A stretch of 62,991 bases of DNA, filler included, from Collodictyon triciliatum (lineage: Eukaryota): NCBI GenBank assembly GCA_043381765.1. It is 14 parts of 14 records of this genome, joined end to end, with 100 filler letters (N's around TTAATTAATTAA, not from the genome) between each part and the next. Parts side by side here need not be neighbours in the genome. Positions count along the whole stretch, not along the records: positions 22,553 to 26,958 come from JBHJMP010006132.1; 13 more parts are not named here. One strand, written 5' to 3'. Position 1 is the first letter of the stretch; every line of letters starts with the position of its first letter. A program made the translations under genes and the position numbers. The notes under the pieces are model-generated. The model was not told the DNA's origin, made no database searches, and was given only the letters and a program-made list of their open reading frames with translations. Below, one piece after another: positions 24,951-26,400 of the stretch.

Positions 24951-26400
24951 AATAATAATAAATTAATTTGTGAATGTAAAGTGATGTAATCCATGCTGGA
25001 TTTAAAGAAGCACACCAAAGAGTAACGGAATTTATAATAACGTTATACAACGCAAAGTACCTATTGCGCCGAGAGTAGTGGTAATCATCAAAAGGAGAAG
25101 ACATACTCCCGCTTATATCAAGAACAACCTGAGCAGTTTTTTTTTTTTTTACAATCATAAATAGCATGGTGTAATCTCAGTTACTAATGCTATGCTCAAA
25201 CCATCAGGTTCAGAGGACGTCTATGGAAAGTGCTCTCTGTTAACCCTGAATTCAACCCCACAGTCATGTACTTGATCGCTATTTACATGTTGATGTATAT
25301 GACAATGTTATTGTAGCGATCTTCATACGTCTTTCAGTCGGAATAATTAATTGTAATAAGAAATAAAGAAAGCATATTCTGCACGTGAACCCAGCATTCA
25401 AGGGTTACTAATTCGTGCAGAGTCTGGAAATATGGACGTACACTTCTTGCTGATTGGGTCGGCAGACGAGGCGAGTGAAAAGGAAGGACAGAAGAGCTTT
25501 TTACACTGCTGCTGTTGTCCTGTTTCGAAAAAGTAATCGTAGAAAATTCCTTCATATGTTACATCTGTCGGTAGCGGAAGATAACTACAAAGGATAAATG
25601 TACAATGTGCTCTCTGAAACATTTTTTTCCTTTATTCGATTCAAAGGTGCTCTCTGAAACATAATATGTGATATATATGATTCCTTCATTTTTAAATAAA
25701 GTGATTATGCATAAATTGTCATTCAAATTTGGTAGAACCTCTATAAAATATCAAGGCATGATATGAAAGGTGAAAATAGAGTGGTTGAAAAAAGTTTTAT
25801 TTCTAAGAGGGCATGCATATTCGTCCAATGAGATAAAGGTGGATGAATATGTGTCCCTGACACAGTGATTGGATGGACGATGGATATGTACCCTTTCTTG
25901 ATGTTTTCTCTAAAGTTACTGACGTCCTTAGAACCCCCAACTGCGAAACCCAGAGCAGCAGAATCCGCCTGGAAAGCAACTGGGGCGGCGGCCATTTTCA
26001 TCTGTCTCACACCGCATAAATCAATATTTTCGCTCAAGACATCGTATTAAATTATCTAAAACATGCTAATATCCATCCATCCATCTATCCATCCATCCAT
26101 CCATCCATCCATCCATCCATCCATCCATCCATCCATCCATCCATCCATACAAAAACAAAAACAAAACAAAAAACTTGCAAGAAACTTTAAACTATATAAA
26201 AATAAATAATAAAGTAATAAATAATAAAGTAATAAATAATAAAGTAATAAATAATAAAGTAATAAATAATAAAGTAATAAATAATAAAGTAATAAAGTAA
26301 TAAATAATAAAGTAATAAAGTAATAAAGTAATAAAGTAATAAATAATAAAGTAATAAATAATAAAGTAATAAAATAATAGTATAAAATAATAGTATAAAA

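Follow-up and report, generated by a model that had tools for sequence, protein, structure and literature searches.

The units of 18 nt plus a short run of A found in the genome of Collodictyon triciliatum are very probably the outermost 3' ends of a LINE of L1-like (APE-RT-CCHC) type living in that genome. What appeared to be a new tiny retroposon becomes an extreme form of LINE truncation with its parent identified, and everything about it is ordinary retrotransposon biology save the endpoint of the copies. The separate ultra-short retroposon family proposed in the initial annotation is given up, since its 18-mer is the 3' terminus of a LINE with a zf-RVT domain. The stretch of DNA analysed here (the window, 62,991 nt) is built from 14 contigs (4402-4414 nt each, arranged from the longest to the shortest) separated by N/TTAATTAATTAA spacers; without the spacers it amounts to 61,691 bases, with a GC content of 37%. 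In the following, family 2 denotes the LINE with the 18-mer terminus and family 1 a sister LINE at 19687.

In element sense the 18-mer reads CTTTGAATCGAATAAAGG and is followed by a short A-run. Two clean copies, A and B, lie on separate contigs (Table 1). On the plus strand, copy A reads GTGCTCTCTGAAACAT, T6, CCTTTATTCGATTCAAAG and GTGCTCTCTGAAACAT again, a duplication matching at 16 of 16 positions that no shuffled downstream flank equalled in 2000 trials. Copy B consists of ACATTTGGTGTAATAT, T7, an 18-mer identical to that of copy A, and ACATTTGGTATAATAT; its duplication matches at 15 of 16 positions, a score reached by 3 of 2000 flank shuffles. The initial annotation had described just this arrangement on two contigs, with 16-bp repeats, together with a shorter copy near 10003, which is likewise present. 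This copy C keeps 12 nt of the tail, ATCGAATAAAGG, which with its A8 spans 10017-10036, and its target-site duplication (TSD) agrees at 12 of 13 positions (0/2000 flank shuffles as good).

Two further, older copies had been listed at 4215 and 21612 as lacking a clear TSD. This holds for copy E, a 17/18 match beginning CTTTAAATCG, which has neither an A-run nor a duplication (1450 of 2000 flank shuffles scored as well), but not for copy D. The 18-mer of copy D matches at 17 of 18 positions (CCTTG for CTTTG) and is flanked by an 11/12 repeat, CAAGGAATGRAA, placed 4 nt upstream and 24 nt downstream (12/2000 flank shuffles as good); the A/T-rich stretch between its A5 and the repeat looks like a decayed A/T tail. 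Similar A/T-rich strings follow copies D (4218-4199, GATAATTATATTCA) and E (21630-21645, GATAATTTATTCA), and could be decayed tails or a 3' extension common to an older subfamily. A GATAATT-like stretch shared by the two tails was considered as such an extension and set aside, a decayed A/T tail being the probable explanation.

Chance recurrence of the motif is low. Its 14-mer, with up to one mismatch, occurs four times in the window against 0.04 expected, and at least four occurrences were seen in 0 of 100 shuffles. Weak look-alikes of the 18-mer at 32031-32069, 33722-33741 and around 55030 (13-17 of about 20 bases, E 0.2-9) may be old decayed copies or chance matches, and were left out of the copy counts.

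Table 1. Positions in the window of the LINE-derived copies of both families and of the introns at and around copy A.
Feature	Position	Strand	Details
Copy A	25607-25662	-	TSD 25647-25662; 18-mer 25629-25646; A6-7 25623-25628; TSD 25607-25622
Copy B	34920-34976	-	TSD 34961-34976 and 34920-34935; 18-mer 34943-34960; A7-8
Copy C	10003-10049	-	12-nt tail 10025-10036 + A8; TSD 10037-10049 and 10003-10015
Copy D, older	4187-4256	-	18-mer 4223-4240; A5; 12-nt repeats 4245-4256 and 4187-4198
Copy E, older	21612-21629	+	17/18 match; 5' start at the same base as the 18-mer
Copy F, older, ~370 nt	7900-8270	-	ORF2 end and 3'UTR of the parent LINE; blastn and alignment
Family-1 LINE fragment, ~1.6 kb	19687-21300	-	zf-RVT ORF 19915-20637; end ...CACAAAGTTGAAAGGAAGAATA + A7; 5' limit approximate
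Family-1 29-nt tail	50708-50768	+	tail 50724-50752 between perfect 16-bp TSDs ATGAGAATAATCTAAT
Family-1 68-nt tail	24621-24710	+	tail 24632-24699 between 11-bp repeats TGAATAAAAGT; 84% over 61 nt
Intron holding copy A, 307 nt	25585-25891	-	spliced-contig joint 25584>25892
Neighbouring introns	25126-25198, 25279-25441	-	spliced contigs

The parent was recognised through a metagenome contig, L008, which carries the 3' end of a LINE on its minus strand. Read in that direction, it holds an ORF with a zf-RVT domain (E 1.5e-7, 32.4 bits against a cutoff of 27.5) corresponding to the C-terminus of ORF2, then a stop codon, a 93-nt UTR ending in ...CTCGCTACA, the 18-mer CTTTGAATCGAATAAAGG and A10. The 18-mer and A-run are 100% identical to this terminus, and blastn aligns L008 without mismatch to copy B over 26 nt and to copy A over 25 nt. 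The long LINE ending in the 18-mer that the initial annotation had envisaged as a possible source is therefore at hand, with an exact terminus in L008 and a related tail in the window itself. There, blastn of L008 against 7900-8228 (minus strand) gives 82% identity over 333 nt, covering the ORF end and the UTR (E 1e-86). Because this copy F resembles the L008 tail, the parent LINE family is present in this genome. Its own tail has diverged, with a variant, ATATGAATCGAAATAAAGGGG (7913-7933), followed by an A-rich run in an alignment that extends to about 8270, and for that reason the exact active master is not seen in this genome. As L008 comes from a metagenome contig, its host may be a related organism and not this one. 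Copy F lies about 290 nt downstream of the stop codon of an alpha-tubulin gene, whose 3' end (8566-8922, minus strand; Tubulin_C) encodes F as the last residue of the product and not the usual Y.

Database scans for the motif returned little beyond L008. A 19-mer scan of metagenome contigs gave 35 loci, L008 being the one informative locus; the other 34 were judged on inspection to be chance or coding matches (unrelated flanks, or no CTTT upstream). All 10 matches in a scan of genome contigs were in bacterial genomes and unrelated, and a scan of viral contigs gave no matches.

The assignment to the L1-like LINEs draws on several features. zf-RVT domains occur in the L008 ORF and in the window ORF at 19915-20637 (E 1.6e-6, 29.1 bits), and poly(A) tails, TSDs of variable length (11-16 bp) and 5'-truncated copies are all present, the truncated lengths over both families being 12, 18, 29, 68, ~370 and ~1600 nt. 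The window fragments and L008, whose reading frame is split into two overlapping ORFs, do not include the RT or endonuclease domain of the 18-mer family. A phmmer search with the L008 ORF against 1.84 billion representatives returned 14 matches, four of them full-length (1226-1275 aa). All four carry RVT_1 (E 1e-33 to 1e-36) and Exo_endo_phos, and three carry zf-RVT, although these are distant relatives, only 29-38% identical to the L008 ORF. Their predicted domain layout is that of an L1-type ORF2. A separate homologue search with the L008 ORF yielded no longer homologous proteins.

Ultra-short copies are not confined to family 2. The family-1 LINE fragment, to which the L008 ORF is 57% identical over 123 aa in tblastx, has two short relatives in the window: 29 nt that equal its tail except for one base, and a 68-nt tail. 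These two do not share an endpoint. When inserts ending in an A- or T-run were sought between direct repeats of 11 bp or more, only copy A and the insert at 50708-50768 were recovered, while a relaxed scan (A-run-ended inserts of up to 80 nt, duplications of 11-16 nt) found four in the window against none in a reversed-sequence null, all with inserts of up to 30 nt and duplications of 13-16 nt. Together, the short family-1 copies and the relaxed scan mean that ultra-short, TSD-flanked LINE tails are general in this genome, a pattern consistent with target-primed reverse transcription that stops early. The fourth insert of the relaxed scan (153-203, minus strand) consists of 18 nt, GTGTCCCGCGAGCATGAG, and A7 between 13-nt repeats GGGACGSGTGATA (12/13); its 18-nt body is related to neither LINE tail.

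Supporting the reality of the inserts, copy A is also found outside this assembly. It lies in sense orientation within an intron of a host gene, and this intron and its two neighbours read CT..AC on the plus strand, that is, GT..AG on the minus strand. Contigs from two public transcriptome-like runs, X1 and X2, were compared over 24990-26050. An unspliced contig (25556-25921) in both runs includes copy A without gaps, and the intron is also seen spliced out in X1/X2 contigs. The recurrence of copy A and its flanks in two public runs rules out an artefact of assembling this record. Both runs have the filled site, and no empty-site allele was seen in their contigs. Contigs of two further runs, X3 and X4, gave no match over 24990-26050, a result with no bearing on absence of the insert. 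In addition, X1 has two loose ends and X2 one, all from other contigs that match the T-run and 18-mer and diverge exactly at 25646, the 5' edge of the unit. Their consensus reads ...CAGTCCAATA then GAAACAT before 25616, and TAGTCCAATAGAAAC... after 25646; they resemble another copy, one whose duplication spans about 15-16 nt, if both ends belong to one record.

These observations bear on whether the units are retroposed at all. Templated filler or repair insertion, a selected motif, or a contaminant or adapter artefact might be suspected, as the inserts are very short and hold AATAAA, a recognisable signal. Such origins are highly improbable given that A-tails accompany 12-16-bp duplications of unrelated targets at independent loci, that the unit is identical to a LINE terminus and that copy A recurs in independent data sets. 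The L1-like, target-primed reverse transcription advanced in the initial annotation is borne out by the A-tails, the duplications of about 16 bp and the independence of the loci.

On this basis, a LINE endonuclease would nick the target at a T-rich/AT site on the element strand; the nick contexts at the three cleanest sites are TATT/ATGT, TATT/ATAT and TTCT/ATGA. With the poly(A) tail of that LINE's RNA as its priming site, the reverse transcriptase would then copy no more than about 12-30 nt before stopping. A staggered second nick 16 bp away, once filled in, would leave the 16-bp duplication, and the TSDs of 12-16 bp, as products of a staggered cut, lend indirect support to an APE-type endonuclease. 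Behind this scheme stand the identity of the unit with a LINE terminus, the presence of that LINE in the same genome, the duplications at independent loci and the like behaviour of a second family.

The feature that sets family 2 apart is where its copies stop. The common 5' end pointed out in the initial annotation is confirmed: four of the five short copies (A, B, D and E) start at the identical base. The lengths of family 2 in the window are 18 (four copies, two of them with one substitution each), 12 and ~370 nt. At word size 7, blastn of L008 detected no copy of 19-300 nt in the window, and tail motifs (a 12-mer and an 11-mer with one mismatch, sensitive to copies of at least 8 nt) brought up nothing beyond the copies of 12, 18 (four times) and ~370 nt. 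The initial annotation had held that a smooth length distribution leading back to a parent LINE would make this ordinary truncation; the parent is present, but the lengths are not smooth.

Plain stochastic 5' truncation, in which no endpoint is preferred and the common start reflects biased detection or the accident of a small sample, would be the simplest account. To our knowledge, 5' truncation is universal in LINEs, the family-1 lengths (29, 68 and ~1600 nt) vary, and just five short copies are observed. Nevertheless, this account is improbable. The sensitive searches uncovered a gap-ridden set of lengths, and under simulated uniform and geometric length models at least four of five equal lengths arise with p 0.0001-0.012. 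The three loose ends in X1 and X2 break at the same base as well, although these extra copies are a biased sample, being detectable only through flanks resembling those of copy A. A preferred 18-nt endpoint is thus real in this small sample (five short copies and one long one in 61,691 bases), and it is the sole unusual element of these LINE tags.

Why family 2 stops at 18 nt is the part that we infer. Termination is generally early in this genome, as copy C has 12 nt and the family-1 lengths vary. The tentatively preferred explanation, a little short of an even chance, is that the enzyme, working on full-length LINE RNA, meets a sequence-specific arrest or jumps template early, which might occur at the upstream edge of a short 3' element held by protein during initiation. 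The explanation placed next, possible but somewhat less probable, is that a pre-existing short 3' fragment of the LINE RNA serves as template.

A more specific version of the latter supposes a stable RNA, made up of the LINE transcript's final 18 nt and poly(A), which the LINE protein takes up by its A-tail and copies to the 5' end, the unit acting as a minimal non-autonomous retroposon. Such a template, starting at CUUUGAAUCG, might be produced by an endonuclease, by 5'-3' decay that stalls at a bound protein, or by small-RNA processing. The sharp 5' end common to four of the five short copies suits this idea, as do the 5' junctions of copies A and B, where no microhomology to the parental bases preceding the 18-mer was evident by eye, as run-off at an RNA 5' end predicts. 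Whole inserts are also of small-RNA size (24-27 nt in A and B, 20 nt in C and 29 nt in family 1), and a precedent is offered by L1-mobilised RNA fragments, for which PMC5322556 describes defined truncation points in single-stranded regions. Against this, the RNA itself is hypothetical, contig data cannot show RNA ends, and the lengths of copy C (12 nt) and of family 1 (29 and 68 nt) are better fitted by variable early termination. Nor does a known RNA point to a processing event: searches of the window, L008 and 7800-8400 against Rfam, its ribozymes among them, stayed below the gathering score of every family. The sole matches at E<=1, in L008 and 7800-8400, were four far-below-threshold hits to unrelated lncRNA and miRNA families, so no known ribozyme accounts for a cut. 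Folds of the sequence upstream of or including the 18-mer were no better than shuffles (five folds, z -0.24 to +1.46; -0.11 to +1.46 for the 3'UTR). Neither these folds nor Rfam nor the junctions account for an arrest, a point that counts against the preferred explanation too. A discrete tiny template is, on balance, less likely than not, though a serious rival. Less likely still is a distinct class of retrocopies of about 24-27 nt made from a processed 3' fragment of the LINE RNA (18 nt and a short A-tail), this fragment perhaps being what the LINE protein or a small-RNA pathway shields as its footprint. Arrest or template jumping on the full-length RNA stays the preferred reading. Keyword searches of the literature at the level of abstracts yielded no account of fixed-length ultra-short LINE tags.

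The window is eukaryotic in content: besides the GT..AG introns it contains a Tra1-like FAT ORF, the alpha-tubulin end, ORFs with WD40 and FG-GAP repeats, and LINE fragments. The best protein matches of the Tra1/FAT ORF are at most 54% identical, one of them from an amoebozoan transcriptome. The WD40 frame (55769-58051, plus strand; 760 aa) holds repeats at 56433-57677 in 135-nt tandem units that are 79-89% mutually identical, reminiscent of NACHT-WD40-type genes, whose WD repeats are highly similar. Two adjoining frames with FG-GAP_2 repeats occupy 59560-62013 (plus strand), the second of which opens with 24-nt tandem repeats (60707-60994) coding for a Ser/Pro/Gln-rich stretch. The genome is unusually rich in microsatellites. 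Long arrays of mono- to octanucleotide repeats occupy many contig ends (for example, 4312-4414, 17843-17946, 27059-27230 and 40575-40730), and the assembly therefore seems to break at simple repeats.

The window holds six copies of family 2 and three of family 1 in 61.7 kb, from contigs apparently ordered by size only. If this density holds genome-wide, tags of 18-30 nt would be numerous and missed by standard repeat annotation. Every sense-strand copy adds AATAAA and an A-run to host transcripts; copy A, sense and intronic, is one such case. The 18-nt endpoint, if confirmed, would naturally report the point at which the reverse transcriptase of a LINE passes out of initiation, or the processing of LINE RNA, and would be of interest to those working on the mechanism of target-primed reverse transcription. 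Should the processed-fragment reading prove true, this would be the smallest defined retroposon unit, carrying AATAAA into introns at about one per 10 kb.

Among known systems, the closest are the LINEs of the L1 clade, which have an APE endonuclease, a reverse transcriptase, a C-terminal CCHC motif, a poly(A) tail, TSDs of about 7-20 bp and 5'-truncated copies. The copies described here resemble truncated L1-clade copies in their A-tail, terminal AATAAA, duplications of about 16 bp, truncation on the 5' side and zf-RVT-bearing parent, and three of the four full-length relatives of the L008 ORF combine APE, RT and zf-RVT as that clade does. They differ in being mostly 12-30 nt long, barely exceeding their TSDs, and in the sharp endpoint of one family 18 nt from the A-tail. 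The nick target of classical L1 is TT/AAAA, in contrast to the T-rich/AT context here (three clean sites).

A second comparison is with SINEs whose 3' tail is taken from a partner LINE, as in Okada's 'stringent' 3'-end recognition. Like these, the 18-mer copies are short non-coding units that carry a LINE's 3' terminus and are mobilised by the LINE. Unlike SINEs, they have no promoter-bearing head: a Pol III head (tRNA, 7SL or 5S) is absent from the units, and Rfam gave no tRNA, 7SL or 5S relative at threshold anywhere in the window. As the TSD directly abuts the 18-mer, the unit is not an independent transcription unit.

A third comparison concerns tailless retropseudogenes, described in PMC5322556 as TSD-flanked copies of L1-mobilised RNA fragments with truncation hotspots. 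The likeness lies in TSD-flanked copies of RNA pieces with a single defined end position, or a small number of them. Tailless retropseudogenes are 3'-truncated, lack an A-tail and derive from cellular small RNAs, whereas the 18-mer copies are 5'-truncated, keep their A-tail and derive from a LINE; copies A, B, C and D have A5-A8 right after an intact LINE 3' end. PMC5322556 asks whether such endpoints are set by prior cutting of the RNA or by the behaviour of the enzyme, the same two readings that are weighed here for the 18-nt endpoint of family 2.
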